Assembly (NCBI GenBank): GCA_903813345.2
Contig: CAIIXF020000001.1
Coordinates: forward strand, 8,122,001 to 8,186,000
Direction: 5' to 3'
Source of the DNA: Owenia fusiformis
Lineage: Eukaryota
Length of the DNA stretch: 64,000 bases
Below, piece by piece: positions 21,454 to 47,803 of the stretch. The first letter of the stretch is position 1, and every line of letters begins with the position of its first letter. A program made the translations under genes and the position numbers. The notes under the pieces were generated by a model. That model was not told the origin of the DNA, made no database searches, and saw only the letters and a list, made by a program, of their open reading frames with translations.

Positions 21454-24400
21454 CTATGGATTTTTGTTCAGTTCCACTTCATTGAGACTAACAAGTATCC
21501 CATCCAGCATTTGAGGTGGTTCATCATATCCGAAAGGAGATGGTGGTGTGTCTCTGCGTACGAGAGGTGGAGATGATTTCTCCACGGTCTGAACGCTACC
21601 TCCTTTTGACACCTCTTGTCCAATTGATTTCGTGGTCTTAGATTGTGATTTCTGACTAAAAACAACTCGAAACGATGAGGTCTGGTCGCTACTGTCACCC
21701 AAGCCAAAGAATGCTTTAGAAAGTCGGAAGGTTCTTCGTGTGCACACGAACGAAAAGCAAATGAACGCACCCTGAAGGGAATTCATCACAATGAAAACAT
21801 ACCAGAACGCCAAGATTTGAGAAAATGCAGCAACAAAACCCATGATCCAAGTAAACCCCATGATGCTTGCCATCTTGAAATACTGCCAATTGTTGCTTTT
21901 GCGATATCCTCGTAATTTGACAGTCTGAGCAAGATTTCTTATATCAGATATTTTCAGTACCGTGTTGATGTAAAACACTGCATTAGCAATGAGTATGAGA
22001 CCCAAGGGCAAAGCAAACGTAAAGAGAAGGGCATTTGGGTTGCTGATCCAACAAGCAGTGCTACTGCCATAACCAATTGTTAATCCCCAGAGTTGATAGT
22101 AATCAACAACGAAACAGAAGCTGACAGCAACGGCGGGCATGCCCCATGCGTACACAAGATAAACGTAAAATCGTTTTGTTCTCATTGATGTCATCACAAC
22201 TTGAAATTTATGCCTGAATGTAAAATAGATATCAAATGACAAGACGTTTGACCAGAACGCAGACGACAACCAGAAATAATGCTCCGTCACAGCGATACCA
22301 GTACAAACAAGCGGTATGGATGTCTCATTCATGACGGATACCATCAGTAGTTGAGCAATGAAAATAGCAACAGAAAGGTTCATTATGCATTTGCCAGGAA
22401 GTGTCTGGAGGGAAGGAAATATGGAGAATGTGACGAAGGTTATACCCAGTGATATGAGAGATATTATGTTTCCTACTTGGGACATGATTCTTTGCAAGTA
22501 TGAGTAATCAAAAAACATCAATTTACTGAATTCTGAACTGTAATTTGCGCAGACAAAAGCAGATGAGTTGAAGATAATGAACTGGTTTTCCAACAGATAT
22601 TCATCGATTCTCTTCAAATATAGAGATGAGCCATTGCTTTCGAATTCATCTTTGTCAAGTTTGATAACAGAACATTGCAGAAATAATTCATTTGTTACAT
22701 TTTGAGTAAAAGATGCATTGTTGTGGCGAGATGCAAGCACAGAACATACACTAGAATCGACGTTTAAGCCAGTTTTACCACAAAGAACAGGTCTACATTT
22801 ATCAACAGCAAGATCGTATATTTCTGTCTCCTCGCATTTTCTTCCCATACCTTTTATTTCCTCACCTGTCTTGGTTCTAGTGGCAGTCAGGCCGCTGTGG
22901 GAGAAATCTAAGAGAATGGCCATGGACGGAGGCAGCTCACCGAAACTTTGAGAATCACCGAAGAGCCCAAGAGGTCGTATTTGTGATTCGTTGTATCCAT
23001 TGCAAAGAGCACATGCAGCATTCTTAAAAAATATGTTTATTGTCTTTCCGATGTTCAAGTCTTCAGCTACGACGAATGTTTTCAAAGCGTATGATTTGCA
23101 AGCAACTTGCAAAACATGAAAATTCGAAATTTCCTCACTGAGAGATGAATTACATTGGATGATGTCTCCAGGTAAACATGGTTCAAGCCATTTTTCGATT
23201 TGCTCCCCAGGGGGTTGGAAATTAAAACTTATATCATTGTTTTGTATAGAATCTACTAGACTATCAAGATCATCAAGGGTTATTTCTTTCAATTTCTCAC
23301 CCAGTTCTCTCAACTTAGCAATGTACCTTATTTCTGTCTTCCAATAAAGCAGTTCAGAAAGCGATTCGAAGTTGCACATTGCGCAGAAAATGTTGGTGTA
23401 CGTTGCGCCAGTTCGATTAGAAGTCACAGGAACAAGACTTCTCAATATGTCATTGAAAGTTTCCCCCTTTTGTCCGCGCTCACATTTCTCTCTAACATCA
23501 CCTGCTGGGTAGTCATGGTTACAGCCAATATAGGTATAGTAGAACTTCTTGATCCAATTGTCCAAAGGGGAATAAAAATCATCCGGTGGCAACTCAACGT
23601 ATCTCAAGAATCTGCAACTAGCTTCTGGACGACGATCAAGATACCTTAAGTTGCGAAGATCGTTTTCTGAGAAACTATAGTTTGCATACCAATTAATATC
23701 GAAGAGTTTCGGATTAATATTGGCCAGGATGTCAGTGTTGGTCAGTTCATCTTGTTGGTGTGAATTTTTGTTGCATTCGGTGTGGTAGTCATAGCAACAG
23801 TTACTATATAGATAGCACTTTGGGGTACACAAACAAACTTGGCTAGAATATTTGAGGCCGTAGTCCTTCACTTCTAGGCACTTATTTTTACAAGATGCAC
23901 GTGGATGCTTGGACTTTGAGAATTTTTGGTTTTCGGAATTACATACAGGGTTTTCTACAGACAACGAGCACCGCAACTCGCTATTGTTTTGATAATTAAA
24001 GGCAGCCATGCCCAAAGTTTGGATCTTACACTGGTCAAATGGCCCATCGATTGGTTTCGATTTCTCAACATCTCCCCTTTCGCATATAACTGCAAAATAA
24101 AGCAAATCTATCGTGAAACTATGAATTTGAAGGTTCATTAGCAGCCCTCTAACGATATGTTTTTCGAGAACAGCAATGATAAAAATACATGACAAGTATA
24201 GTGACATAATAGTGTGACATTCCAGACCTGCCAACCACTGCTCATAAAACAGGGTATTGTGAGCAGTTAGAAACAGGGGGAATCAGAGAACTGAGATATT
24301 TAAACAAACCTTTCTTTGAGAAACAGTGGAATACTTGGGAAAACAGAAAGTTTTTTAAAATTGGAAGAAAAAGACTGACTTAAAATGTCCTTTTCTGATA

Positions 24401-27659: not shown

Positions 27660-30600
27660 TCATGATTCACAAGTTCTTGACTGTACAATAATAGCATCTC
27701 CTGAGTCGGAGCCAGCATTTAGTGAGAGTGTTTCAGTTTTTGATTGTAAAATGTCAAATTCGTTACTTGGACTGAGAGTCATTTTGTCAGTGTCTGCACT
27801 GGAATTCTCCTTAGTTTGAGAAATTGGTTTATTTAAGAGATCATTCTTTCTCAAGTAACAAGCTTCCTCATAAGGTGGGTTGATTGGGCCCTGGGTTGGA
27901 GGGTGGTATACATAATCTGCATCACTAGTTAGCTGAAATATAGGAATTACTTTGAATGAATGGATTATTTTAATACTCTGTCAGCAGTACAAACTGTACA
28001 ATACAGTAAATCTCATATTATGTATATGGCATTATATAAAACATGAGATGTTCATTTTAGTTCTCCACAATCATATCTTTACAAATCTTTCCAATCTTTA
28101 TTTTCTCACTTTTAATTTCTGCCTTGGTCTTTCATATTTTTTTTTCAAAAATAAATCCACAATATTTTAATTTTCAAAATGATATCCCTTAACATTTGTA
28201 CCTGTTTTCCCTACTCCAGGTTATTTTAAAGGAATCAATCATTTCCACTAATGAATATTTATATATTCAAGGGTGATCGCAATTTCCAACTTTCATATCT
28301 TCAGGTTTTGGTGTTTTACAAAAAATAAAATATCTCAATCTGCATATCTTCATGTAATTCTTGATCGATATCCTTACAATAAAATAAAGGATATTGATGC
28401 TTTATATCATCCTCTGAACACAGGCTTCCAGAATTCATACCATATTGCTGGAAGAAGGATTGAATGTAGTGGATGATGTCTGAAGTCCTGAGTTCAGAGG
28501 AGGCAAAAGATTCAAATCAAACTTTCCAAATGACTGGTCAGCCACTGTTACTGTCAGCTTCTTTTTGTGAACTAGCAAAAATCAGTTAGCCATCATATCA
28601 CACAGTTGGTTTAATGATTTAGTAAAAATTTGCAAAAAAATTTTTTACCACTTTACATGATATCCTAGAATATCTCGGTGATGATTTATTAATAAGCCTC
28701 AGTCACATTTGCTCTACAACAGGCCTACAGCAGTCGTAGTCTCAATAAATCAATATAGAAAATCTACATCGTACTGCTTATTCCTATATTTTATGCTGCA
28801 TTTTTCTCTCGATTTTGGGAAGCTACAGCCACCGTACAGTTGCCGTAGATTATGTGTGACTGAGGCGTTAGTCACATTCACCTACCTTAAGGGGGTATGT
28901 CATATCAGAGTCATATGCACTGAGGTCTCCACATGCCAGAAATGGCACAATAACTCTATTCACTCCTTCTAACTGGTTAAAGTCAACATCTGGAAATGAA
29001 CAATTTATTCTACTTTACCCCTCTTCATTGTTCATAAGACAGATACACTTTACATTGAGAAGAAAATCTCACCAACATTTTGACCACCATATTAAGGACA
29101 AGAATTTGACAACTAGATTTTGTTCATGAAAAAAATTACTTTTGTCCGATAACTGTATTTTTCTGAAATGATGGTGACCATCTAGAATTTTGAGGAAAAG
29201 AATTTTGATACACAGCCAATCTGCGACATTGCCGTATGGTACTGTTTTGGAAATGGTACTGTAAGGTATCCATGATACCATGATATTAGAGTGTGGATTG
29301 GGGGTATACCCAAAACTTGAATAAAGTCTGATCAAGGGTTTGCTGTTAAGATATAGAAAAAAAGATAAGCAGAGAAATATGTGTTTATTTTACTTACCAT
29401 AATGGTGGTCAAGGAGTGGATTGGACATGTTGGGTACATAGCCCTCAGGGGGAGAGTAATTCTGGCACACAACAAAAGCCTCTGAAATACAAAATTGATT
29501 TTCAAGAATCGCATAACTTTGGAAAAAATTCAATCCAGGCATGGTGATTTGCTTTCCTTCAGTGTATGAACTGAAGTATAAAATATATACTACATGTACA
29601 TGTACATAAGGTATCACAGTTATCACCTAGATCAATAGACAGATGGACAGGCAGATGGAAGGACGGATGGAGGAAGGTGTTGTCTATTCCACTCAAACTT
29701 TGAATTATTGAATATGTTTGGGAGAATGTGAGCATTCATCAATACATTACCCTAAGTTCAAATAATCATAAAGTTCATATATTCAACGATCTTCCACCTT
29801 AAGCGTTTGCAGATAACGCACCTATACTTTTTTTATATTTTTTTTTTACGCACCTATACTTGAGTTCCTGCTGCTTCTGGGCTTTGCACATGTTACAAGA
29901 GGGAAGAATATCTTCAGTTGAGAATAAAGCAATGTGACATCCTTTCCTCGAAATATCTACAGAAATGGAAATGATTTATAAATATCTGGTGATAATTATC
30001 ATGTAAATACAGGGTGGTCAAAAATGGCACACTTGTATTTCAAAAATAAATATTGATTTTAATGATGAAAACCTGTCAAATTATATACCAGTTTAATTTG
30101 GTATATATAAGTTCAAATTTATTATACTGTCTGTCAACCAGCGTATATAATACAAGTGACCTGATTTTCATTTCAAAATAGGTTTTCCAAAACTTGCAAA
30201 AACCAAGTTTTTAGTCAAGTTTAAGCAGATGTTCAATATGTCTACCATTTTGATCAACTATAGCCCTCAATTTCGGCCTAAACTGGTCAATAGCATCATT
30301 GATGTTGAGACAGGGAATTCCAAGCTAGGCACACTCTCCTTGAAATAGTTGACTGTCTTTTGGAATCTCTGGCTTGGAGCACAATCCTGTTAGAAATGTT
30401 ATATCAGGAATCCCCCTAATCACTGGCGCCCCAGACCACCCGATGCTAATGTCTGTGACTACAACGTATAGGGAGAACTAAGACAATTGGTATACTATGA
30501 CCCCTATAAATCTATTTAGTTTAGGCCAAAATTGAGAGCTATAATTGATCAAAATGATGGACATATTAAGCATCTGCTTATATCAATAAAACTTACAAAA

Positions 30601-33600
30601 ATTTGCAAGTTTTTGGGAAAACTGTTTTGAAATGAAAATGACATCATTTGTATTATATTAGTATTATGGATTTTGGTAGACAAATATTATAATAAATTTG
30701 AACTTATGATAAACTGAATTAAAGATAATTTAAATTCCATATCCACTGGTATATAGTTTCATCAATAGAATCAATATCTAATTTTGAAATATGAGTGTCC
30801 CATATTTTAGACCACCCTGTACATATGACATAAGAATGAAATAAAGTGATTTAAACATTTAAGACTTATGCTTTGAAATGTCCTGTTTATTAACCATATA
30901 TGTATGAGTTACATACATCTTTTTCATTAAAACATTATTTTTCAATTAAAACTAAATGTTTTGTTAACTATAATGCAGTGTACCTTTGCTACAAAGGTTC
31001 CTCCCTTTTTCAGAACATGTGTTGTGATATTCAGTGCCTGAAGAAACAGAGACATCTATAAATGCATGTTATGGAATTGTATGGGAGTGGACGAGTCATG
31101 ATATAATTAGACAATTAAAATTGTTAACAAACTGATGTTTACAAAAGTAAGCTCATAAAAACTCAATCTATAGAAAAAGGTCCTTGATATTTTGATAGAA
31201 CATTTCCTGTATGAGGACATAAAACCAAAACACGTCAACCACAAGTGTATCATGATTCACCTGACAAATTGCAATTGGAGAAACACTCTTGAGGATACCT
31301 ATAGAGAAGGGCCACAGTGGATGTGTTTTCAAATGCAAAATAGAAAGAGAAAGAGCATGTAAAATAGCATGTAGTAGATACTCAGAAATATATAGAATGT
31401 ACAAAATTAGGCTGCTAATTCAAATTTTAGAGAGAAAAAGTGGAGCACAGGCAAGAATGAGTGATTTTTATTTTTTCATGGGAAAGCCCATCTGTGGTTG
31501 ATATGTATAGCTGAATATTTTTCCTGCCATCCTCCCAATAGGTTAATTATAAAATAGGAGGCTCTAGCATTTTATTCCCATTGCTAATTAATCTGATCTA
31601 CATGACTAAGTAAACAAACTGAGAACGACACACCCAGATCAAGTGAAAAATAAATGAAAAAATAATAATTTCTCCAGATAAAGATGAGTTGCAACACTAC
31701 TGCATTTATGCAGACCAGGCATGTATGGAATGTTTTCTGCTTCATTATTCGTATTTTACTATATGTATTCGTATATTGAACTTTTGAATTTGTTAAAAGT
31801 ACATTTATGTTTGTAACTTGAGTATTTTAATTCATTGTTTGTATTTTCTGTCTGTTAATCTAATTTGTTTCGTTAAAACGTATATGTAGGTGTTTTATAC
31901 AGAAATACATTCAAAAGTCCTCAAACGCATTTGTAAGTGACACATTGTATATCCGTATTCAAATAAATTTAAGTTCATGTTTTACCATTATCGTTGTTTC
32001 TGCAAATATATTAGTTTAATATCTACGAACTGAATGTCAAATTTATCAATGAATAAGTACTTGCCTTGGCATTTCATCTTTTAATTGTCGAATTTATTTT
32101 TGTAACAAGGTAACAAAAACTCTCGTGTCACGTGACCTATTTGTCTATTTGATACATCATATATGTATTTGTAACTTAGGCATTTTATTTGTAAATGTTA
32201 CATTAATATTCGTATAAGGGAATTTATTACAAACGAATAATGAAGCAGTTATGACGCTATAGGCACGGGCTTAATTAAGGATTTGAATACACCTATCTGA
32301 TGCCAGATATTAAAAAAGAGTTATTAGTAGTGTTGTGCTCAGGATAATTGGACTTTTCTCAATTCAGACCAGACCATCTACCATTTAGACCATTAATACA
32401 TAGTGTTCTCATTTTCAAATGGGTGCAAATGGGTTTTCAGGTGGGTATAAACATATTCTTAAAATTCCAAGAGGTAATGGTGCCCTCTTGTCTGTTATGT
32501 ATGCAGAACATACATTCACTTGCTTTAATGCTTTGGAGACTACTGACAGTGGAAACTCTACGACATTAAATTGTATACTTACTGCCAGCAATAACTGTGC
32601 TTGTATGTACTCATCAATATCATGTAGACCAGTCACTAAAATAAAGAAATCACAAACTTTATATATAGTCTGATGTTAATTACCTAGATTTCCAAATTGT
32701 TGTGGAAAAATATTGATTTTCACTTTAAAATTCACCTAATATACATAAAATATGTATAAATGCATTTGTATAAATTGAATAAATATCACCCAAATTGTAC
32801 TATTTTTTCCTGTGATCATATTCAGATGTTGATTACAGGGCCGGATATGAATGTGCATGTAGAGTACTCTGAAAATAGTTTCATTTGGTAGCTTTTTGGT
32901 AATATTTGTTCAATAAAAATATGTGATGATACAGCCATTTCCATGATATACTAGTACACATAAAAGGGGAATTTTGTCAAGAAATATAGTGAAAACTTTA
33001 TGCCAACGTGTAAAAGGGTCACTTGGAATAACTTTTAGTGAGTGATATTTTACAAATAACTTAAAAGATATAGGTAGCCTAGCCATCACCTTCTTGGATT
33101 TGCAAGCATTGATGAATTGATGTATGATGAACAATGAACAATGACTACCAAAGACCAATCCTGGGATGGAAAAGTTAGTATTACATGTATCTCTCTTTTC
33201 TATCTGGAAATATTCCATATCTCTAATTATCAATGTCTCGGGGGAAATCATATGGCAAATCACAATTTACATCACACTCCACTGTAACACTACACTCACC
33301 ATATATTACATGTACATACCTCACACTATTCAACATATATCATACTAATACTACAATGTAATATTGAATTGATTTAATAACGTTTTTAAACTTTACCGAC
33401 CGTCAATCTCTCTTTGGAAATAAATAATTTTAAGTGTTTTTATGTTGAGTAATTAGGAATAGGGTGTGAAAGTTGATCATTGGAATTCTGAAAATTTTTG
33501 TTTTTCATGTTTGTATTTTATTGTTTATTCACATTTCACTATTTTTTTGATGTTTTTTTATTGAGAAAAAGTTTTTGATCATCCAAAAAATGGTAACCTT

Positions 33601-36500
33601 CGCATCTGAGATGGCGGACTGTAATTGTCAATTTTTATATTTTTAGTTTTCATTGAATTAAACTACTTTTGGCAAATCAAGCTTATGTGACATGGGAAGA
33701 CATGGGAAGATATGGTTCAACTGTGGTGCCTATGCATGGTATATGAACAAATGATCATACTCCAGAGTTTCCATGTCATATGAGTTGATTAAGTTCAAAT
33801 ATCAAAGTATAACGTCAAGTATAAAGTGGTTTAATTCGACGAAAATAAAAAATATCGAAATTGACACTAACCATCCGCCATCTTAGATACGAACATTATG
33901 GCCGTTACCTTCACTTGATACTGACCAGTGACACGAGATCTCCAATTTTTACGTATTCTAACCAATCTTTTTCAAATCTGCATATTATTTTTTATCCAGC
34001 TCTCTAGATCCTTACCCATGGAATATAGTTATCTGATTCAATCAATTATTGTTGTCTAACCTGCCTTCGTAAACATTGCAAAATTAATTTTGTCCAATTT
34101 CATTTAGTTTCAATCTGGCTACCTTTAAGTTCCTTATCAGAATAAAAATGTTGACCAAAAATGGTTTTTGAGGAGACCAAACTTATAGAATTATAAAGCT
34201 TTTAACTTTGGCATACTTTCCATTTGTGAAATCTTCTAAAGTAACTTAAGAGGGGGGGGGGATCTCAAAGGGGGGTTCTAAGGAGACAAAGTCTAGAGTG
34301 TAAATGTGCATTGAGAAGACATTGTTGCTGATTGGTCAAATCGAAAGGCAAATGACGTCATTCAATGGTGAGTTGTAATCGGAAACTAGCTGGTGAAAAT
34401 TCAAACACGAAGGTGGTGAGCAAGAGATGTAACATGTCTGTCATCTCTAAGCTCTGGGGGTTTCCCTCCTCTTAAGAAGTATTATTGTAATATCATGCAA
34501 TAAATCTAACCATTTTTTCAGTATTCAAAAGAGATTTCAAACTGACATATAAATGTTGTAGAACTGACATTGCTCAAACATTAAAACACCACATCAAATA
34601 ATACTACTTTTCATCAAAATAGAGTAAAATTGAAGTGTCTGTCAACACATCTGTCATTAAGTTGTTATGGACATCATTGTGTCATTGCCTGGAGGTCACA
34701 GCCTTTGAAATTTTAGAAATGAATTCATAATTGCATTAGACATGCTGAAAATCTCAGCAAGGTTCCTTCAAATTTGACAAAATGGGAGCCTTAGCATCAT
34801 TTTTTTTTGACCACCCTGTATATGAGCAGTTGGAACTTTATTTTACTACATGTACATGTATTTAGATTTCTTGTTCAATTGCAGCCCTAAGGATACACGC
34901 ATTGCATAGTCATATTTTATTTGCTTGACATGTGTCAATACAACTACATACCATCTGGTGCTCCATCACACACCACAAGGTCTGCTTTGTCACCCTCAAA
35001 ATGCCCAATAATCTTGTGTGCTGTAGATAACTGAAAAAAAATATTGAGGTAAAAATCTGTAAATTGGGGAATATGATCTAATATGTATATTTGATTTACA
35101 GGGAGTGACAAAATTGCAAACAACATGTACTAGCCTAGTGACCTCACAATGTATTTCTTATGATCTCAAATAAAATTGCTCCCAAAAGATCCATTATTTG
35201 TAACAAATAGGTGAAGTTATTTAAGATTCAAAGTGCAAAATGGGGGAAATGTTTTAATTCTCCCAAATAATAAAACCACATTAAAGAAAAATGATACATC
35301 ATCGTAAAATTGTTTAGTTTTCCTCAAATAAAATATACACTATGAGGATTTTTAGAAAATAGACATGACAAGGAATGATATGAGCCAAAAATATTCTAAA
35401 ATTTAAGCAATTTTGTTAAGATTACTTGCTAAACCCAAAACTACCTTTAAATATAATATGTACCTAATATAGATCTCCTATTTTTAAATTCAATAACTGT
35501 ACATATACTTTCTGAAATGTAGAACTACATCAATAGATTTAAAACAATATGGACAATACCTTTGTAATGTCCCCTTGTATCTGAATCACACCAGGTATGG
35601 GTGCCATTGCCTGGAGATCCACTGCAACAATCTTGCTATCTTCACTGACAGAAGGACATTTGCCTGCTTCTTTACTAGCTCCATCAGTTATTTCCATATT
35701 TGTATTTGATTGCTGTATTTTTGAAACTAATTTTTCTTTGTGTCCCTCAGGATTTTCTATGACTGTTTCTGGGTTAGAGTTGTTTTGTCCACGAGGAGGA
35801 TCATTATATGCTGATGCAGTGGTGTTAACTGAAAGGCTTTCTTTGTTTTGAACAGACAGATCTTCCTTTGACTGAACTTTGCTTTTATCTGCCCTGTAAA
35901 CAACAATACCAGTACATGTAATTCATTCATCTGGAGTTCAATAAGTCAATGATCAATGTAAAAATATGCAAATTTGATTTATGCTCTAAAGTGAAATACA
36001 TGTACGAGTATAATTGATATGTAATAAATTGTAGAATTGATATGTATTAAATATTTAAGAACGTTTGTTCCCTGGGTGGATTAAATGGACAATCTTTATG
36101 AATGAGTTACAAGAATATGAAATTATTTTTTAAATGGGGGGAGAGGATCACAATCATCTACTAGTCTCAGTTGGCCCGAAATATTATGGACTTCAATTTG
36201 ATTGGTCCATTCAGAGTGATATGAGGGCCAAGAAATCTCGCATGAAATCTGGGCAAGGTACATGTACATTGTTCTTTACAGTGTTTGTTTCCCAATTAAT
36301 TGTACTCACTTTAGTTTCCTTGCTAAGACTTGACTCCAACTACCTGGTGCAGCACACAGATCTACTACTTTGTTGACGCCTTCAAATATGTTGAACTCTT
36401 CATTGATCTGTAGCAGTTTGTAGGCACTACGGGCTCTCCAACCTTCTTCCTTAGCAAGCCTGTAGTAGATGTCTCGCTTATCTTTTGATGAACGCCCCAT
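27660..36500 (-). CDS. FTSJ1: tRNA (cytidine32/guanosine34-2'-O)-methyltransferase FTSJ1/TRM7, 9 coding exons
   Basis: Exons 36310-36500, 35560-35893, 34952-35030, 32583-32635, 30984-31037, 29854-29956, 29398-29481, 28886-28989, 27660-27932 with consistent phases. Motifs [103 protein letters not shown]; the K-D-K-E tetrad is intact. Confidence 0.96.
30010..30819. mobile_element. Tc1/mariner-type MITE (TA TSD, CAGGGTGG ends)
   Basis: TA|CAGGGTGGTCAAAAATGG ... TTTTAGACCACCCTG|TA with long imperfect arms; related partial copy from 56378. Confidence 0.8.
33591..33897. repeat. Degenerate inverted-repeat element (MITE-like)
   Basis: TTCGCATCTGAGATGGCGGA..TGTCAATTT..GAATTAAACTACTTT mirrors AAAGTGGTTTAATTC..AAATTGACA..TCCGCCATCTTAGATACGAA. 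Confidence 0.6.
35150..35449 (-). mobile_element. Kolobok-like MITE family copy (reverse)
   Basis: AGACATGACAAGGAATGATATGAGCCAAAAATATTCTAAAA..CTACCTTTAA is the reverse complement of the left half of 55149-55521; the start is approximate. Confidence 0.6.
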
Positions 36501-36504
36501 CCTC

Positions 36505-36878
36505 TAGTCTGTCTATGTTTACAGTATGTCAATAATCTGCAAAAGGCTAATAAGCCCATATAAAGCAGTCACACATTCAACAGTGATATAATTTGAACAG
36601 AATACAATTTAAATAATATAAAATACAATCTAAAGAGATTGTAATAAAAAAAATCAGTTTCTACTATATCCCTCATGCAATCAGAGATAATACTGTTTTT
36701 ACATTATAGCAAGGGATTTTGTATTTGAGTTAGGTAAAATGAGTTGTAAACCATAGATCTATTTTTAAATGTTAAGGTTTTAAATTATATTCTATTCTAT
36801 CACTGTTAAATTATATATCTGCTTTATATGGGCTTATTAGCCTTTTGCAGATTACTGACATAGACATAGACATAGAGT
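36505..36878. repeat. Inverted repeat whose arm carries the splice acceptor of the FTSJ1 start-codon exon
   Basis: TGTCAATAATCTGCAAAAGGCTAATAAGCCCATATAAAGCAG (36527-36568) vs CTGCTTTATATGGGCTTATTAGCCTTTTGCAGATTACTGACA (36819-36860); similar text at 44513-44545. Confidence 0.7.
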
Positions 36879-37069
36879 TTTACTTCAATGATGGTTTATG
36901 GATTTTCTCCTGTGGGCGATAATTGAGTCATTTCAACGTGTTGATTTTGTTGAATTCAAATAAAGCATCCCGATGAGCAAAAAACGACACTTGGCGATTT
37001 AAACGAGACTTCTACTTAATTATGAATTATCTAAACAAATAAATAGATCGTGAAAGTATTGTTATATAC

Positions 37070-37328
37070 CTTATTGCATTGGTTTTGTGCTGTTGATCTT
37101 TTTTCCAATTTTATTGTACTTCCGGTACAGCGCACTAATTTAAAGTTTCTCATTTTCACTTTAGTCTGTTTTTCCGCATAATCACGCTATTCAGGCGTCA
37201 AAGTTCCACTTTCCTAAAATATTGAATCACATTCCACAGAATCTTGTGTATAAAATTAAATTTAATGAACAATGAAAGAGAAATATATTTAATTCGGATG
37301 TGTAGAAAAATAGTGTTGTTCGGTCAGC
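37070..37328. promoter_or_regulatory. Bidirectional promoter region FTSJ1/PUS3 with ETS-like motifs
   Basis: Putative FTSJ1 non-coding exon donor (AAG|GTATA on -) at 37069; ACTTCCGGT at 37118-37126 and CGGATGTG at 37295-37302; PUS3 ATG at 37329. Confidence 0.6.
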
Positions 37329-40300
37329 ATGGAGAAGAATAATACTTGTCCTAAGCCGAAACCAGAGCGGGATTCATTGTCCAAAGAGGTACTTATTTAC
37401 TATTTATATTATTTTTATATTCTTCTTAGTGTATGACCACAATTCATATCATTACTAGATTTCTTCAAATCTTTGATATGAGGTTTGAAACCCGGTTCTA
37501 AAATCAGTCGTGTTCTGACATTGGCTTTGAATTAGAATTTATTCAATTAGAATTTAATCAATTCTAGTTGAGAGCCCATGGTTCTGACAAACCATTTGTA
37601 CACCAGTCAATGTTCCAAAAATCGAAGTCAGTGCTTAGACACTGGTGGATCAAGAAACTAACACGGGGGGGGGGGGAATTTCTAGTCGGCATGCGCAGAA
37701 AAATCTTTTGGGCCCATATACCAAAAATTGGGCCCAAGTTTTTGAGAATTTCAGGCCAGTGTTTTGATAACTTGGCAAATTATGCCCAAAATGTTTCGCT
37801 TTTTGAAGCACTACAAAAAACAAAGGGATGGGGGGTGGCGCAGATCCCATTGCCCACCCCCCCTTGATCCACCTCTGCTTGGAGATTGATGGTTGAAGGG
37901 TTCGGTCTTTCTCAAAAACCTCATCAATTTAGCATAGGGTGTTGATATGGTATACCCCCATAAATGTAGGCCAGATTTGCGTTTTTCTTATTTGAGACAT
38001 TCTAGATCACAATTATTAGCGATCTAGAATGTCTCAAATAACACAAATATTTGCGATCTAGAATGTCTCAAAAAAGAAAATAACCAAATCTGGCCCACAT
38101 TTACGGGGTAATACATGTATGGTACGGCCTTAATAATCTAAGGTTTCTGTAGTGACATCAATACTTATAATTGACCAATTTTCAATGTACGTGCACATGA
38201 TCAATTTTCAGTTTTGAAAGCATGTATTAATTTAGTTATAGAAATATATAAGGGTTATGTACTGGGAGGTTTCGGATATGGGGTTTATCCAGAGGGAGAT
38301 ATGCATATCTACCTGAGGGACCATAGGGACCGAAGGTAGATGTGCATATCTCACGAGGGATGAACCCAATATCCAAACCGACCGTATCCTATACCAAGTA
38401 GAGTTTTCAGGGGCATATGGCCGTTTCAATAGCACAAGGTGTAAATCATTTATTTGCAAAGTCATTTAATTGCATTATCGGAAGCGGGAAGATATGCACC
38501 GGAAGCGGGAAGATATGCACCTAAGTGGGAGATATGGCGGGAGATATGGAGGTTCTGGATATGGAAACCTCAAAATCAGGATACGGGATATATCTTACAA
38601 ACTTATCTCCCTAAAACTCTACTTGGCATAGGATAATGTAGGTTATTTATATCACGTGCATTATTTATTTTCTAGTCATGAAAAAGGCCAGAATTGACAG
38701 CTATGCAAATTAATATAAAGCATACTTGTTGTACCATACAGTCAAAAATGAATTACTGTTCTGGTTAAATTGTATTTAAAGTGTCTGTGGATCTAAAATT
38801 CTATGGTGTCATTTTCAGGAACTCCAGTGTCGCGTGACACAGCTAGAAGCACATGTTGCACAGCTGAAAAATATCATTAAGAAGCAGCATGAGGACAAAA
38901 CACGTACAACACCATCAAAGAGGAAACAAAGAGAGTTTGACTTTACAAAGTATAGTACTATATATTTCTACATGATTTCAAATTATACAATAACGGAGAT
39001 GCGAGTAGGTAGTTACCAGATTCACCATCAGGTGGCTCGTTCGGGTCAGATAGCATGGCGGGTATAGTAGAAAGTTCCCTTTAACTTAAATTACATCTAT
39101 TTGCGTGGTTCAATTTTCATATAACCCTTATGTATCTAATAGTTATGCAAATTAAAATATGTCCAGTAAAAGAAAATGTTATCTGTCCAATACAAGAAAA
39201 GATAATTCACTTTTTGTGATTTTCTAACATGGGGTCTATGAGGAATCAACCCGAACAAGAAGTCACATTTTCAAAAAAAATTAAATTTTCAAAGTTGATG
39301 GACAATTTTCGAAACCATATTTCTAGATGTACATTTTCATGCAGATTTCAAATATGACATCGCTTTGACTAAATTTTGAATATTAATGACGTAAATCAAG
39401 ATTATTTCTACTCGCATGTAATCTATTACATGTACACAATTACACATACTGTGAACACATGTGCATGTACATGTAGATCATTTTAAAATCATTCAATCTT
39501 TTTGCATATCAAAGTGAACAATGTGTTGTAATATTATACATTTTATACACACTCAAGTTTAAAAGTTCTATTTGCTTTTTATACAATGCTTTCTGTTTTT
39601 TTGTTGCAATGTACTAATATTAAAATGAATAGCACATTTATTTATTGCCCTTTTTATTGACATTACCACGGGGTACCATCGAATAATTTTGGCAACGTAC
39701 CGGAGAACGACATTTTACTAAGAAATGGCAATAATTTAGCACAAAATATTTTTTAACTAGAGTTCTACTTTGATTTTGACAAAAGTAAGTATTCCATGCA
39801 ATGGCTATTTCATTCATGAGTTTGTAGGAATTCTGTTGGAACCCAGTTCTGATCAAGTACGAAGTTATTGAAATCGGAGCAGTCGGACTTTACTCCGAAA
39901 GATGGTTTTTCGATTATAACTTTTTACAACATTTAAGTATAGACTTTTGAAAAAAGTACAGAATAGTCCTTAAACTATTGAATAATTCTGTTATTTCTGA
40001 TTCACACGACTCTGATTTGTTTAATTAAAAAAAAAGTTTTAAAAATATTACTTAGGAACGTAACCGGAGCTGGGAACGTAACCGGAGCAGATCAGTTGAA
40101 TTATATAATTTAAAAAAATAAAATATATGATTTAAAGCATATATATTAATAAATACGCATTCGAACAATCCCGTATGTTTTTAAATTAGTACAGTATGTG
40201 CTTTAAATCACTTTTTTTTTGATTAAATAATTCAATTTCAACTGATCTGCTCCGGTTACGTTCCCAGCTCCGGTTACGTTCCTAAGTAATTTTTTTAAAA

Positions 40301-43300
40301 CTTTTTTTTTAATTAAACAAATCAGAGTCGTGTGAATCAGAAATAACAGAATTATTCAAAAGTATAAGGACTATTCTGTACTTTTTTCAAAAGTCTATAC
40401 TTAAATGTTGTGAAAAGTTATAATCGAAAAACCATCTTTCGGAGTAAAGTCCGTCTGCGCCGATTTCAATAACTTCGTACTTGATCAGAACTGGGTTCCA
40501 ACAGAATTCCTACAAACTCATAAATGAAATAGTTATTGCATGGAATACTTACTTTTGTCAAAATCAAAATAGAACTCTAGTTAAAAAATATATTGTGCTA
40601 AATTATTGCCATTTCTTAGTAAAATGTCGTTCTCCGGTACGTTGCCAAAATTATTCGATGGTACCCCGTGATTACTTTGCAAACATTTCAGATGTAGCAA
40701 GAGGCATGTCCTCCTGAAGATATTGTATGTAGGGTGGGACTATCATGGTTTTGCAGTGCAGGATGAAATTCCAAAGACCATAGAATCAGCATTGTTTGAT
40801 GCTTTAAACAAAACAAGGTTAATCGAAAACAGGTATGTGGAGGTTGTACCCTGCGTTGTACTCATATGATTCATAATAATAATTACTTGATTAATAAAGA
40901 TAATTACAGTATTTGGGACTTTTTAGCTCACATTGTATTTTTGTACATATGATTATCACATCTGTATACTTATACAGTATATATATACGTTATGTATGCA
41001 TGTTTCTTTATTGTGAATGACCAATATACTCTAGAAGGAGACGAGGAACAATTAAGTACTATCTTAGTACTATCTATAGCTATCACTCACTTGTTTTAAC
41101 TTAAGTTTTCTGATTCCTGTCATGTGATAATAGTTTCATTAAATGAAGTTGAGCATTCAAACACCATGGAATTTGATATAAAGTACAATATATGTACGAA
41201 AAGTACAGTACTGTATTTTTCTAATTTTAGGGAAACATCTAATTATCACAGGTGTGGAAGGACAGATAAAGGAGTCAGTGCATTTAGTCAGGTAAATTAT
41301 TATGGCAGAACATTTGAACAATGCCAGCTCTGTTAAACAAGAGTTCTGCACAGATTGATGAGGCTACCACTGATGCTAACACATTTAAACAAGACATTAA
41401 ATAAGAAAAGCACAATTTAAGGCTGGCACATCTAGATAAATCGAACATATTTAAAACAAAGCTGCCTACAGTTACATATTGCCTATTGCATTATAACAAG
41501 GCTTCCCCATGGAACAAAAATTGTTTGAATTGATTATGGATCAAAAATTTGGTTGTCAAAATAAACATTTGACAATTTTCCAGGTTATATCTATTGATCT
41601 GAGGAGTAATCTATCAGAAGGTCCAGGTGTTATAGTGCCAGAGGGTCACAATGTTAGCAACAAAAAAGGTCAGTAGGGTGTTTCTTTAATTTACAGAAAA
41701 GATGCATGTCATAATATCCTATACATATTTCCATTTAGAATTCAGGCTCTCTATGACCTTTAGCACATTACAATTATGTTCTCTAATTCCTCTGAATTTT
41801 GCCCTTGTTGCCTACAGTCATCTTGCTTCATCAAGCTTCGGACCTCTCCTCACCTTGATTCACAACAAATTATTGGTTATACACTAAATAAACAAACCCG
41901 AGCTGATGCGCTGTTTTGAATATCATTATCCATAGGAAGGGCCTTTGTCACCACAGCCCAGTTTTCTGTGACACGAATACATCCCTGCCTATTGTTATTG
42001 CCTCTATCGCTTCTTTTTGATCGGGTTTTAAAGAATTCATGATCAGATGAAATTTACCGCAAATCTTTTCAAACAATTTCTCCATTTTTATTTTCTGAAT
42101 ATTGATTCAGGGGCCTAATTTGAATAATTTCCTCAACTTTGATTGGCACACGGGCTATCCCGCGCACTCCGTGAAGCATTTCTACAAATGAGACGCCACA
42201 TATTTCTTGGGTCTCAAGTTTGTCATATGAACCCACAGGATAGAACATAGAGATTGAGCATGGGAACTGACGATGGCCTACAGTATCAATACACTTTCTT
42301 TTCCATAATGCAAGAGCCAAAAATCGTTCATATCATTCAGTTAATTGCCATTTAGAAATCATTTGGAAATCAGTGCATGCACCCTTGGTATTAGAGATTT
42401 TGCAACTCACTTATAGCATGTTTATTATCCCATCGAACGAAGTTCGGAGGGATATAGGGAACGCCTCCGTCCGTCCGTCCGTACACAGTCCGTCCGTACG
42501 TCCGTACGTCTGTCCATCCGTCCGTCCGGGCAATAACTCAAATACCGTTGGCCCGATTTTGTTCATATTTTGTACACATATACCCTATGGGAATAGAAGT
42601 TCTGCTCAAAAGCCGATTTTCAAAATGGCCGCTCATTTCAAAATGGCGGCCATTTTAGTGCCGATTTTACAGTAATTTAGGTGCAATATGTAAAACTGTA
42701 ATAGCAATATGTTTTAAATGTAAAAAAATTATAAAGGACATTAATAAAGCTACAAATTTAGATATTAAAAAAGCACATGGCAGCCATCTTGAAAAATAGC
42801 GGCCTTTACTTGTTATTTTACGATTTTTGCTGTAACTCGAAAAGTAGTGGAGCGATTTTGTTCATATTTGGTATGTGAATACTATAAACATTGCACACTG
42901 TCTAAAGACACTTTTGGTAGAAGGCGGCCATTTTGAAAAATGGCCGCCATTTTAACGTATTTTACTATAACTCAAAAAGTAGTGGAGTGATTTTGTTCAT
43001 ATTTGGTATGTGAATACTATAAGCATGGCACACTGTCCTATGACACTTTTGGTTGAAGGTGGCCATTTTGATAAAAATTTTGAAAAATGGCCGCCATTTT
43101 AACGTATTTTACTATAACTCGAAAAGTAGTAGAGCGATTTTGTTTATATTTGGTATGTGAATACTATAAGCGTGGCACACTGTCTAATGACACTTTCGGT
43201 AGAAGGTGGCCATTTTGAAAAATGGCCCCATTTTAACGTATTTTACTATAACTTGAAAAGTAGTTCAGCGATTTTGTTCATATTTGGTATGTTTCATATT

Positions 43301-46300
43301 TTATATGTGAATACTATAAGCATGGCACACTGTCTAATGACACTTTGGGTAGTAGGCGGCCATTTTGAAAAATGGCCACCATTTTTACGTTTTTTACTTT
43401 AACTTGAAAAGTAGTGAAGCGATTTTGTTCATATTTAATATGTCAATACTCATGAGCCTTGCACACTGTCTCATGACACTTCGGATCGTAGGCGGCCATT
43501 TTAAAAAATGGCTGTCATTTTTACATTCTTTACTATAACTTGAAAAGTAGTGGAGCGATTTTGTTCATTTTGATATGTGAATACTCTAAGCATGGCACAT
43601 TGTCTTTACAAGTACATGTGTGCGATTTTTCAAAAATTTTATAGGTGGCTACTTAAAAGCATATTATTTCTTCTGATGACAACTTGGCTAGTGAGCAACC
43701 ATTTTGAAAATGGTGGCCTTTCTGGTGTGTTGTTTTATGATATTTGTTATATATTTCTTTTGTAAAAATGCCAGCCATTTCTGTTCGATGGGATTTGCTA
43801 CGCTTTGGCGTTGCCGTTGTTCTGGTTATTATATTCCTTTATAACTTATGAGGCGTTTGATTACGTCACCTTTTATTGCACAGCTCTATATTTCCATACA
43901 TGTGATAATCTTATAAATTGTTGTCTTTAAGTAAGGGCGTCATACTTACTTATGGACATACATGTATAGAGCTAGAGCTGCGTAATAAATGATAACATAG
44001 TCAAATGCTTCATACACTGTAAGTTATATGTTTTACGGAAATAATAAACATGCTATTAGTGAGTTGCAGAATCTCTCTATTTTCTGAGAAGAAGCCTTGT
44101 TTAAAAAGTCTGCTATGAAATTTAGAAGTTTGGATTGAATTTTTTTGGCATATATAATAAGTTATAGTACTTTAACCCATTCAGTTATATTGTTATTTGT
44201 GTTGTAGGCAACGGGAAGGAAGAGATCCAATATATGAAAATCCTGAACAAGGTACTTCCACCAGAAATTAGAGTTTTAGCCTGGAGTCCTGTGGAACCAG
44301 ACTTCAGTGCAAGGTATGAAATATAAACTTATACCTTGAGTGCAGGTATGAAATATAAACTCATACCTTCAGTGCAGGTATGAAATATAAACTTATACCT
44401 TCAGTGCTGGTATGCAGTGTGAACCTAGTTCAAGGTATGCAATGGAGACCTTTAGTTTAAGTTAAATTGAAAAAAAACTGTTTGAAAATGACTTTAGATT
44501 ATCTGCTTGAAATGGGCTTCTTAGCCTTTTGCAGATTATTGACATGTGTTATATTAAGCAACAGATTATATTTCAATGATTACAGGGTGAGCCAAAAAAG
44601 GTAACCCAACCAAATGTTTGTTGATAACTCAGTCATTCAGCATGGGTTTAAATTATGTTTGGCACAATTAGACCTTGTTCAATGTCCTTTCCCTCTACTG
44701 AGTTTCAGTGGTCTATCTCTAAATGTCACGATTTTATGGCCATTTACAAAACATACTCCAAGTGCTGGATACTGAATGACTGAGTTTCCCTTATTTGGCT
44801 CACCCTGTACAAAATGATATCCCAAGAAAAGATGGATGATTTACCTGCACATCTATACTTTTCTGTTGCATATTTCAGATTTGACTGTAAAGAGAGGACA
44901 TACAAATATTTCTTTCCAAGAGGGGACATGGATATCGAGGTACAGTTTAACAGGGTTACATTATGGAAGGTTTTGGATATGGCTTATATCCTGTGGGAAA
45001 TATAGTCATGGGATATAATACATACACATATATCTTCAAGTGAGACGTATTTCATTGAACCTTATGTCATCAAAACAAAATCAAAATTTGAAGCAAATAC
45101 AAAGGTCAGGTTTTTGACATGAATATAGAATACATGGTGGGTCAAGAATGGTGTGCACTTTTATATTATCATATTATGTGGACAAACATAATTGGTCCTA
45201 CTCTGTTTTAGATAATGCGGGTGGCTGGTCAAAAACTGGTGGGTACCCATGATTTCAGAAACCTCTGCAAGATGGATGTCGGAAATGGAGTTGTTACTTT
45301 CATGCGCCGTATCATGAGCGTTAACATAGAAGAGGAGGATCCCAGCCCCACCAGGTAAAACTATTTCTAAATTAATGTTCGTTAAAAATATATTGACGAA
45401 CACATTTGTATAAATGTGCACAACAGCCAGTTTAGACTGGAGGCTAGAAGTTAATTTGATGATGGTTTGTTCACCACAGATTGGATGGCTATCGGATGTG
45501 TACATTAACAGTCGTTGGCCAGGCTTTCCTGTGGCACCAGATCCGTTGCATTGTAGCAGTGCTGGCCCTCATAGGTCAAGGTAAAGAGAAAGCAGAGGTA
45601 AGAGACTAGGGAGTATTTGAATATGTATAGCACTTCATAATACAATGAAGATACAGTTAACCTTCACATGACAGGATGAAAATGTATAATTTCGCAAAAT
45701 CAAGATCATTTATTTGGGTCTTCCAGTCTTGATCGACAGGAGCTCAAACATTAACAATCCATCCCATTATTAGTTTGGTAACAATACCCTGTACAGTGAC
45801 CAATTTCCATATCATTCGTAATATGTTATATATTTGTTCATTGTTACATGGGCAGTGATATGACTAGGCCCTTTTTTGGCCTTTCATGATATACATGGGC
45901 AATTAATGGAATCATTTCCACGTTTGAAGCTGATCTGGAGGCAGAGAGCAAAATGTAAAATGTATCTCGACATAGAACACTTATATGGGAGCTCCAAACA
46001 GCATAACGGTCACACCACTGTGTATTTGCATCCAATTTTCAAACACTCAGGTGTATAATTAAGATGTGTGTGTTTTCAGGTGGTAGATGAGTTATTAGAT
46101 GTAGAGAACAACCCACGTAAACCTCAATACACTATGGCTCTTGGTAAGTAACATAGAATGAAAGAGAATAATGTGTTGTAGTTAGTAGTCATATTTCAAA
46201 TTCACCAATCTCAACTACAGTTAAGTCAAAGATGCAAAGGATAATTATACAGTATACTCGGAAGATCAAAATATAGCATTCCAATACCTTCTAAAATATT

Positions 46301-47803
46301 CTTGAAGTTTAGAAATAATTGTTATACTTTTACATAATGTAGTATGTTGGAGCCTTATATCCAAAAAGATAAATCAAAGGTTTAATCAGTAACTTAAAAT
46401 TTAATGTTTATTTCCAGAGCTTCCATTGAACTTGTATGAATGTCAGTATGAAGATGTCACGTGGCACTATGATCACATATCACATGGTGACACCTTAAAA
46501 CATCTTCAGAATCTCTGGGCAACCCATGCAATCAAGTAATTATATGATAACTAATAATCTTGAAGAATATCATTTTGATGCATTTTATGAACATGTGAAT
46601 TAGTATATTTATATGATATAAGCATTTGTGTATGATAGTGTAAATGCATATAATAAAATGCAAACTGTTTTTCTTTAGACTAAATAAAATGATTTCTAAA
46701 AAAGAAACTAAATTGTTCAGTTAACCGGAAACTTCTTGTCCCATGTTCTAAAAAGTCCATTGCTACAATAATTTTCCATGGAACTTTCCAGACTGGTAAT
46801 ATAAAGATTTATTTTCATGTTCAACATTATTCCAGGACCACCATGATAAAAAATATGCTTGATGACCTTGCTAAAGTACCAGTGGCACTAAAAGATGGCA
46901 CTGAACTAGGTAAACTAAATAAACCCAAAGCCTCATATAAATAATGCAAGCATGTAAGCAATAAATATCACGTTACATAAATTCTTCTTATCTTTTCTTG
47001 TGTAACTACAAAATTGTTCAGTTCTACTCTCAAATGAATGCTACTCTCTACTCTTTTCCCTTTGACTCATATAATTGATAAAATGTATTTTCCAAAACCA
47101 AATCTGCCTATGAAATGACTGCATGCATGAGCATTGTAATTTATTAAGTCTGGGAAAATCTTATTTTTTCCTATAGAGCCTGTTACTGTTAAGTGCCAAT
47201 CAGACTGCCTTCTACCTGGAAACAAACCTAGAACATACCAACCACTACTAACCAGGCACACATGTGGTATGTATATGTTTGTACATTGAAGCACATTTAT
47301 GAAAAAGTACAAATATCTACTATTAGTAATAGCTTAAAATCTAAGGGTTCACAAATTCCAATTTGTTTTCATATTTCATTAGTTCTGTACTGAACTGGTT
47401 CCATACGTCAAATATTCACAATTCAATAATTTTGAAAAATATCATGAATTGTAGGATTTCTCATCCTCTCCATATGGAATAGTATTCTCCCCAAGGAATA
47501 GCCACTTATGTGTAGATTCAGCTCCATCATGTTTTAACATAATTAATTAAAGTATTCTATGTGAGGTGAAATTGTAATTGAATAAATAATTTATTTACTA
47601 GTATTTATGGCCTTGACTAACTGCAATCCAAGGTTTTATTGTACTTTATGATAGATATTGATCTTATTTAGAAATGTCACATACCTAATTGCATTCAACT
47701 TGTTGTTTTTCCAGAGAGCTTAGAGGAGAGGATCGAGTATTATGCAAAACGAAGGAAACTAAACACTTCCTCCACACCAGAGACTATAGAGGATAAAACC
47801 TGA
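37329..47803 (+). CDS. PUS3: tRNA pseudouridine(38/39) synthase PUS3/DEG1, 14 exons
   Basis: Exons 37329-37388, 38819-38949, 40692-40832, 41231-41291, 41584-41668, 44208-44313, 44879-44939, 45212-45354, 45480-45597, 46080-46143, 46418-46535, 46836-46909, 47177-47266, 47715-47803 with consistent phases. Motifs REFDF, RHVLLKILYVGWDYHGFAVQ, YHRCGRTDKGVSAFSQV (catalytic Asp), FSARFDCKERTYKYFF, GTHDFRNLCKMD, AFLWHQIRC, PRKPQY; AATAAA at 47824. Confidence 0.95.
37953..38110. mobile_element. Short TA-flanked MITE (TACCCC..GGGGTA)
   Basis: TACCCCATAAATGTAGGCCAGATTTG ... CAAATCTGGCCCACATTTACGGGGTA; the same terminus occurs at ~21057-21195. Confidence 0.6.
39667..40670. mobile_element. 1-kb near-perfect palindromic MITE, CAC..GTG ends, 5-bp TSD (Transib-like)
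   Basis: ATTAC|CACGGGGTACCATCGAATAATTTTGG ... CCAAAATTATTCGATGGTACCCCGTG|ATTAC; ~480-bp arms; explains mirror ORFs 39638-39856 and 40481-40717. Confidence 0.9.
42421..43821 (-). mobile_element. Helentron-associated (HINE) element with internal ~135-150-bp tandem array
   Basis: Terminal hairpin ATCCCATCGAACGAAGTTCGGAGGGAT, (CGTC)n microsatellite, six AAAAGTAGTGGAGCGATTTTGTTCAT-type units, matching subTIR GTTCGATGGGAT at 43783; it sits inside an older inverted-repeat element (~42392-44078). Confidence 0.8.
44303..44415 (+). repeat. 32-bp tandem repeat containing the PUS3 exon-6 splice donor
   Basis: TTCAGTGCA(A)GGTATGAAATATAAACTTATACC x3.5; GT at 44314, 44346, 44378, 44410. Confidence 0.85.
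44583..44807. mobile_element. Tc1/mariner-type MITE
   Basis: TA|CAGGGTGAGCCAAAAAAGG ... CCTTATTTGGCTCACCCTG|TA. Confidence 0.75.

Follow-up and report, generated by a model that had tools for sequence, protein, structure and literature searches.

FTSJ1 and PUS3 genes of the Owenia locus

A 64,000-nt stretch of the genome of the annelid Owenia fusiformis, called here the window, carries the genes FTSJ1 and PUS3, whose products modify the anticodon loop of tRNA, in divergent orientation. The window is AT-rich (GC about 0.33), with many introns. Between 27.6 and 47.8 kb, stop-to-stop open reading frames on the minus strand encoded parts of an FtsJ-type methyltransferase, and those on the plus strand encoded parts of a TruA-type pseudouridine synthase. 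The first coding exon of FTSJ1 was 100% identical to a 424-aa Owenia protein (P0001), and a PUS3 exon, which makes up 74% of its stop-to-stop query, was 98% identical to a 446-aa Owenia protein (P0121). Both proteins are carried by the same 62.2-Mb Owenia contig. When a script was run from each ATG with only GT/GC-AG introns allowed, P0001 and P0121 were rebuilt from the window letter for letter, thereby indicating that positions 27660-47803 are precisely the two coding regions. The gene models were also supported by tblastn of the two proteins on the window.

The FTSJ1 coding region runs from 36500 to 27660 on the minus strand, as supported by the exact rebuild of P0001, tblastn, the Pfam FtsJ match, and an RNA junction. 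It consists of nine exons (36500-36310, 35893-35560, 35030-34952, 32635-32583, 31037-30984, 29956-29854, 29481-29398, 28989-28886, and 27932-27660, the last including the stop codon). The PUS3 coding region runs from 37329 to 47803 on the plus strand, as supported by the exact rebuild of P0121, the Pfam PseudoU_synth_1 match, and an RNA joint over intron 1. Its 14 exons lie at 37329-37388, 38819-38949, 40692-40832, 41231-41291, 41584-41668, 44208-44313, 44879-44939, 45212-45354, 45480-45597, 46080-46143, 46418-46535, 46836-46909, 47177-47266, and 47715-47803. A sequence-only reading of this DNA had proposed a minus-strand FTSJ1 and a plus-strand PUS3 with start codons 829 bp apart, and the rebuilt models reproduced this arrangement exactly, with the FTSJ1 ATG at 36500 and the PUS3 ATG at 37329.

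FTSJ1/Trm7 carries out the 2'-O-methylation of tRNA at positions 32 and 34 and works with the partners THADA/Trm732 and WDR6/Trm734. PF01728 (FtsJ) matched FTSJ1 exon 1 at 2.1e-15, with weaker colinear matches on exons 2 and 3, and the precomputed Pfam annotation of P0001 was also PF01728, so that an FtsJ-type Rossmann methyltransferase domain is present. Against solved structures, P0001 matched FTSJ1 best (8y2o_B, 7.6e-139), and yeast Trm7 was also matched (6jp6_B, 1.8e-88); the paralogues SPB1 (1.6e-42), FTSJ3 (5.3e-37), and MRM2 (2.8e-27) were all far weaker than FTSJ1/Trm7. The named best matches of P0001 were all tRNA (cytidine32/guanosine34) methyltransferases. Judged by these matches, the minus-strand gene is clearly an FTSJ1/Trm7 orthologue. 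Enzymes of this family have an S-adenosylmethionine (SAM)-binding motif I and a K-D-K-E catalytic tetrad; motif I of the Owenia protein has the same sequence as in the other aligned animal proteins.

Exon 2 of the Owenia FTSJ1 (35560-35893) encodes a low-complexity insertion of about 77 residues, rich in Ser, Asn, Glu, and Lys, which follows the SAM-binding motif and precedes the next strand. This insertion was missing from 12 other aligned animal FTSJ1 proteins. It was transcribed and unspliced inside, with an RNA depth of 10-28 and no internal joint, and the PDB match of FTSJ1 fell in two stretches, in line with the insertion. Two sea-urchin FTSJ1 models were 665-679 aa long.

PUS3/Deg1 is the pseudouridine synthase for tRNA positions 38 and 39. 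PF01416 (PseudoU_synth_1) matched two PUS3 exons (3.9e-06 and 6.8e-10), indicating a TruA-type domain. P0121 matched human PUS3 (9enb_A) at 1.1e-136 over residues 16-433 and was much closer to it than to TruA (4.5e-18) or PUS1 (7.7e-15 or weaker). The protein contains CGRTDKGVSAF, in which we take RTDKGV to be the catalytic-aspartate motif. By the same kind of comparison, the plus-strand gene is clearly the PUS3 orthologue. Among mollusc PUS3 models, long forms of 709-967 aa often stood beside forms of about 450 aa.

Transcription starts and the shared promoter

The transcript structure was examined with two stranded RNA-seq runs (X15 and X16; one study, same organism label) mapped on 35500-39000. 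FTSJ1 exons were covered only by pairs with the first mate on the plus strand, which shows that first mates in these libraries are antisense to the RNA. The first coding intron of FTSJ1 was spanned by the 35893|36310 junction in 23 and 14 reads of the two runs. Upstream of the coding region, FTSJ1-strand joints with CT..AC ends were found from 37070 to 36536 (9 and 6 reads) and from 37070 to 36546 (7 and 14 reads). These joints define an untranslated part of exon 2 at 36501-36546 on the minus strand, with two alternative acceptors (starts at 36536 or 36546), and an intron in the 5' untranslated region (UTR) at 36547-37069, 523 or 533 nt long. FTSJ1-strand reads of either run stopped at 37124 (7 and 5 molecules, adjacent depth 12), and together with the donor at 37070 this gives a noncoding first exon of about 55 nt (37070-37124, minus strand). 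The sequence-only reading had guessed the donor of such an exon about 260 bp from the PUS3 ATG, and the spliced reads placed it at exactly that distance (37329-37069 = 260).

On the PUS3 side, intron 1 (37389-38818) was spanned by the joint from 37388 to 38819 in 10 and 9 reads. PUS3-strand depth in the two runs was 1.53 and 0.38 in bin 37138-37254 and then 5.7 and 5.4 in bin 37255-37371; since depth is first seen in the former bin, PUS3 transcription starts somewhere within about 37138-37254. From the FTSJ1 5' end at 37124 and this bin, the two starts are about 130 bp apart or less, and the core shared between them occupies 37125-37254 (130 bp at most), as delimited by stranded RNA depth and the FTSJ1 5' end. 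Both genes were expressed in both runs, with exon depths of about 10-32 for FTSJ1 and 4-11 for PUS3, and in X15 their strand-specific depths did not overlap past the core. Bidirectional gene pairs are common, and FTSJ1 and PUS3 have the arrangement that defines them, standing head-to-head with under 1 kb between their transcription starts. By its transcription starts, the intergenic core is a classical bidirectional promoter. The tiny shared promoter that had been supposed from the sequence was thus borne out, and it is tighter than supposed.

Two further runs, X1 and X2, whose library kind is unrecorded, also covered this region. A 465-nt contig of the independent run X1 matched 37114-37578 with one mismatch and spans the FTSJ1 first exon to PUS3 exon 1. 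That the two genes are not true neighbours, or that the noncoding exon is unreal, owing to an error of annotation or assembly is therefore barely credible, since this contig crosses the promoter and spliced RNA reads define the noncoding exon and both first introns; nothing was found that speaks for it. In X1 and X2, non-repeat depth peaked in bin 37021-37137 (53.4 and 34.6, respectively), and this peak adjoins the shared core just 5' of 37125-37254; in bin 37138-37254, the depth of X1 was still 37.6 and that of X2 was down to 8.5. Contigs of the two runs lay over the promoter and introns, and none lay over FTSJ1 exon 2. This pattern hints at open-chromatin libraries, which it would fit.

The sequence-only reading had also described two oppositely oriented ETS-like motifs between the genes, and the two fared differently. 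The exact word CCGGAAGT, which we take to be an ETS class I core, stands at 37118-37125 on the minus strand as the sole match in 64 kb, where 0.42 matches would be expected, and the FTSJ1 5' end at 37124 falls within it. The second word, CGGATGT, at 37295-37301 on the plus strand, matches the ETS pattern only weakly and is located 28 bp upstream of the PUS3 start codon; it is probably inside the PUS3 5' UTR and did not rise above chance level. Since two divergent housekeeping genes here have an exact CCGGAAGT where transcription begins, the region resembles the TATA-less housekeeping promoters driven by ETS factors. Unlike in those promoters, the ETS site here is a candidate by sequence match, and the role of the word is that described in the vertebrate literature.

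We consider that FTSJ1 and PUS3 of Owenia form a true bidirectional (divergent) promoter pair of old standing with a probable ETS-type input, and we give this whole explanation a probability of about 0.62. A single nucleosome-free core would lie between the genes, an ETS-type factor would probably be bound at 37118-37125, and polymerase would be recruited both ways. Both housekeeping enzymes would thereby be switched and dosed together. The pairing would be old rather than an accident of Owenia and would later have been broken in many lineages, including vertebrates.

Several points weigh against this reading. The PUS3 start is placed no more finely than a bin of 117 bp, and the ends of RNA-seq reads stand in poorly for cap analysis of gene expression (CAGE). 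Two RNA runs of one study form the whole expression basis, too few for correlation. In X16, a slight FTSJ1-strand signal continued past 37124 (3.4 in bin 37138-37254), and minor FTSJ1 starts may lie upstream of that position. The CGGATGT site belongs on the same side: its pattern, CGGAWGT, was found 5 times in the window, where 5.6 occurrences were expected.

Linkage in other animals and origin of the pairing

Linkage outside Owenia was judged by two proxies, a shared scaffold (with its size) and the order of protein accessions. As a calibration, the Owenia neighbours have consecutive accessions, CAH1772758 and CAH1772759. In the spider Larinioides sclopetarius, the accessions were likewise consecutive (CAL1295832/831) on one 1.74-Mb scaffold. 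Near-consecutive numbers were found in Trichonephila inaurata (GFY51781/783 on one scaffold and GFS34097/101 on a second), Trichonephila clavipes (GFU00172/183, one 609-kb scaffold), and Caerostris extrusa (GIY66180/176, one 169-kb scaffold); the same-scaffold cases of Trichonephila and C. extrusa are on scaffolds of 169-609 kb. Among the abalones, the two genes of Haliotis rubra have accessions XP_046559173-175 and ..178 on one 1.98-Mb scaffold, and those of Haliotis rufescens have accession endings ..064-065 and ..072-074. By these proxies, FTSJ1 and PUS3 seem to be direct or near neighbours in abalones (Haliotis) and in four araneoid, orb-weaving spiders.

The distance between RefSeq XP numbers was tried as a general measure of adjacency and rejected, as it ranged from 3 to 822 within Haliotis, where the arrangement is presumably the same. 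The gap was 822 in H. asinina and about 204 in H. cracherodii, so RefSeq numbers are not always positional, and tight linkage was drawn from XP numbers for H. rubra and H. rufescens only. In other animals, the XP-number gaps were 90 in Asterias, 161 in Glandiceps, 1011 in Tubulanus, and 71-110 in Mytilus.

The non-positional numbering in some releases (H. asinina and H. cracherodii), together with the nature of accession order as a proxy that carries neither coordinates nor orientations for species other than Owenia, would favor a chance adjacency peculiar to Owenia, with two independent promoters and with the linkage in other phyla an artefact of accession order. We regard this explanation as very unlikely. 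The distance of about 130 bp at most between the 5' ends is too short for two separate promoters; the Owenia accessions calibrate the proxy, and the Larinioides numbers are consecutive. In addition, both genes are on one scaffold of 0.17-2 Mb in four spiders and two abalones.

In a second group of species, the two genes shared only a chromosome. These were the mussels Mytilus trossulus, M. californianus, M. edulis, and M. galloprovincialis, the starfishes Asterias rubens and A. amurensis, the nemertean Tubulanus polymorphus, and the hemichordate Glandiceps talaboti. According to supplementary file 7 of Simakov et al. (2013), both genes fall in ancestral linkage group (ALG) 8 in Capitella and at two ancestral nodes, the bilaterian and the lophotrochozoan, and this shared membership accounts for the same-chromosome cases. 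In both Asterias rubens and A. amurensis, the PUS3-bearing chromosome carries a pair of FTSJ1 loci (P0062 and P0282-P0284; P0008 and P0285; these are proteins of Asterias or other genomes).

The comparison also supplied further points on the opposing side. Adjacency outside Owenia is known as accession order and scaffold size, without coordinates or orientation, and the pair is plainly separated in some species. In the tick Ixodes scapularis, the two genes are on the same chromosome at a distance of about 69 gene models. The genes were on different scaffolds or chromosomes in the annelid Paralvinella palmiformis, in Lingula anatina and Pinctada imbricata, in the crustaceans Eurytemora, Oratosquilla, and Homarus, and in the spiders Stegodyphus mimosarum, S. 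dumicola, Caerostris darwini, and Trichonephila clavata. In all, adjacency was absent in at least 10 other species, whereas near-consecutive accessions were found in six species of spiders and Haliotis. The same source places the Lottia genes in ALG 15 versus 6/8 and the human genes in different segments, Hs_6 and Hs_13 (Simakov et al. 2013). The expectation that related species would share the linkage, which the sequence-only reading had made a test of the pairing, thus held in part: the proxies agree with it in Haliotis and the four spiders, whereas it failed in Paralvinella, Lingula, Pinctada, Stegodyphus, and the three crustaceans as well as in the tick. Its statement that the genes are unlinked in human agrees with the two human segments and with established knowledge. 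Human FTSJ1 (Xp11.23) and PUS3 (11q24) encode orthologous enzymes but are unlinked, unlike the Owenia pair, and human PUS3 belongs to a block with a DEAD-box helicase and a flavin adenine dinucleotide (FAD) oxidoreductase that is common to the sponge Amphimedon (Simakov et al. 2013, supplementary file 4).

Environmental eukaryote sequences were also examined. No PUS3 relative was found at any of 80 loci that carry the FTSJ1 N-terminus, even at E <= 1, the only PUS3 matches being four at chance level (E 0.15-0.85). Upstream sequence exceeded 2 kb at 41 of these loci and 5 kb at 29, and in a positive control, heterologous PUS3 queries picked up 5-9 exons on the window. This result stands with the points opposed to our reading. 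Most of the environmental loci are intron-poor, with a single high-scoring segment pair of about 360 aa, and hence are probably not animals. The FTSJ1-PUS3 linkage is therefore not general in eukaryotes, and the environmental loci say little on animals.

From the shared ALG 8 membership and the near-adjacency in abalones and orb-weaving spiders, we infer that the pairing is old. One old adjacency lost many times would explain the linkage in an annelid, gastropods, and spiders far more easily than three chance meetings. The linkage appears old but patchy.

An old pairing could still be a frozen accident, that is, one ancient head-to-head meeting in which the anticodon-loop kinship is coincidental and joint dosage was not selected. 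The pair would then have been kept in slowly rearranging genomes because a viable break must hit the shared promoter of about 130 bp, where it would harm two important genes. We find this explanation possible but somewhat unlikely. The repeated loss without obvious harm in vertebrates, Lottia, Pinctada, Lingula, Paralvinella, crustaceans, and Stegodyphus favors it, and some functionally suggestive pairs are due by chance among about 250,000 scanned windows. Neighbouring genes are also often coexpressed and rarely functionally related (PMC5572396). However, close linkage is found in three phyla separated by more than 500 million years, against a background of otherwise shuffled gene order within chromosomes. 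Old 5'-5' pairs separated by short spacers are a class already known, for which HSPD1-HSPE1 serves as the type, and 5'-5' pairs so spaced are enriched among conserved pairs, which was read as regulatory constraint (Irimia et al. 2012, PMC3514665); this enrichment argues against mere accident. So do the substrates and the yeast mutant phenotype that the two enzymes share: among six yeast anticodon-loop mutants, only the strains deleted for trm7 or pus3 were reported to induce the general amino acid control (GAAC) response substantially (Han et al. 2018, PMC5892943).

The promoter pair of old standing that we favor resembles known systems in several respects. Like FTSJ1-PUS3, HSPD1-HSPE1 (HSP60/HSP10) consists of functionally related housekeeping genes placed head-to-head with a spacer of less than 1 kb, and its linkage, kept from humans to Capsaspora and fungi, is ascribed to the shared promoter (PMC3514665). 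In contrast, HSPD1 and HSPE1 form one physical complex and are linked in nearly all species studied, whereas the FTSJ1-PUS3 linkage was lost in many lineages, human included. We know of no binding between FTSJ1 and PUS3. The pair is also like the co-regulation type of conserved ancient microsyntenic pairs (CAMPs; Irimia et al. 2012) in its 5'-5' arrangement, very short spacer, and apparent retention across phyla. Unlike in CAMPs, the 5'-5' orientation of FTSJ1-PUS3 is known from Owenia alone.

A stronger version of the old pairing is that a head-to-head FTSJ1-PUS3 unit descended from the protostome, possibly the bilaterian, ancestor and was kept for a fixed ratio of the two enzymes. The basis for it is that the enzymes act on the same anticodon loops (32/34 and 38/39) and that loss of either leads to the same translational stress response. 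We consider this version doubtful. If true, FTSJ1-PUS3 would be a eukaryotic operon-like unit for anticodon-loop maturation that was split up in vertebrates. Human FTSJ1 and PUS3 are both intellectual-disability genes (PMC5892943 and PMC6340380), and a common promoter of about 130 bp for their orthologues, seemingly kept in annelids, abalones, and spiders, suggests that dosage may need coupling. This idea predicts correlated regulation even where FTSJ1 and PUS3 are unlinked. The pair adds a clean, RNA-supported case to the few old bidirectional pairs whose genes are functionally related; its arrangement is of an ordinary type and involves no new kind of mechanism.

No paper describing FTSJ1 and PUS3 as neighbours was found in the full-text literature, although supplements could still contain the pair. 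There were no occurrences of FTSJ1 and PUS3 in the main text of Irimia et al. (2012, PMC3514665), whose supplementary lists lay outside this check, in seven supplementary files of Robert et al. (2022, PMC8851819), or in the two searchable supplements of the Owenia genome paper. In the microsynteny table of Simakov et al. (2013), no block held both PF01728 (7 occurrences) and PF01416 (9 occurrences); this table needs at least three genes per block, and thus a two-gene pair could not show there.

Repeats within the genes and flanking features

An element resembling a miniature inverted-repeat transposable element (MITE) lies at 36525-36862 in the FTSJ1 5' UTR intron, with 44-nt terminal inverted repeats at 36525-36568 and 36819-36862 that are 98% complementary (repeat I1). 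Both splice acceptors of this intron fall within its left arm, and from the exon starts at 36536 and 36546, the FTSJ1 mRNA leader contains 12-22 nt of the element. The summed contig depth of X1 and X2 over 36436-36903 was about 4,000-48,000, which exceeds the non-repeat maximum of 53 by a factor of 75 to 1,400 and indicates a very high copy number, and RNA reads on both strands lay over the element. An arm similar to that of the MITE-like element seems to recur near 44461-44604, where the translation of an open reading frame is similar.

A second high-copy repeat occupies 38191-38658 in PUS3 intron 1 and is in neither transcript. Its summed depth in X1 and X2 was about 12,000-167,000, and the inverted repeats I2 and I5 lie inside it. 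The RNA reads over this repeat fell on both strands and had loose ends at 38244 and 38636, indicating that these reads come from other genomic copies. PUS3 intron 2 contains inverted duplicates of about 500 bp (39638-40113 and 40203-40717), whose translation, beginning EFCWNPVLIKYEVIEIG, was found at 39828-39950 on the plus strand and at 40387-40509 on the minus strand. In PUS3 intron 5, at about 42650-43850, several copies of a tandem-like unit were found, with a translation that repeats a motif such as KMAAILTYFTITRKVVERFCLYLVCEYYK; this unit is probably a satellite or a decayed repeat.

No tRNA genes or Rfam families were found within the 64-kb window, and thus there is no nearby known RNA to explain the pairing. 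Beyond the 3' end of FTSJ1, a 942-aa open frame at 21457-24282 on the minus strand matched the secretin-family seven-transmembrane domain (PF00002, 6.1e-24) and, weakly, somatomedin B; it looks like an adhesion/secretin-type G-protein-coupled receptor gene. On the other side of the pair, a retrotransposon without long terminal repeats lies at 51926-55241 on the minus strand, with an endonuclease (PF14529/PF03372), a reverse transcriptase (PF00078), and its frame in three pieces. Farther on, C-type lectin exons lie on the plus strand within 57869-60449, with PF00059 at 57869-58228 and 59118-59405, and they are followed by a long, repetitive open frame rich in Thr, Glu, and Pro at 59541-60449 on the same strand.

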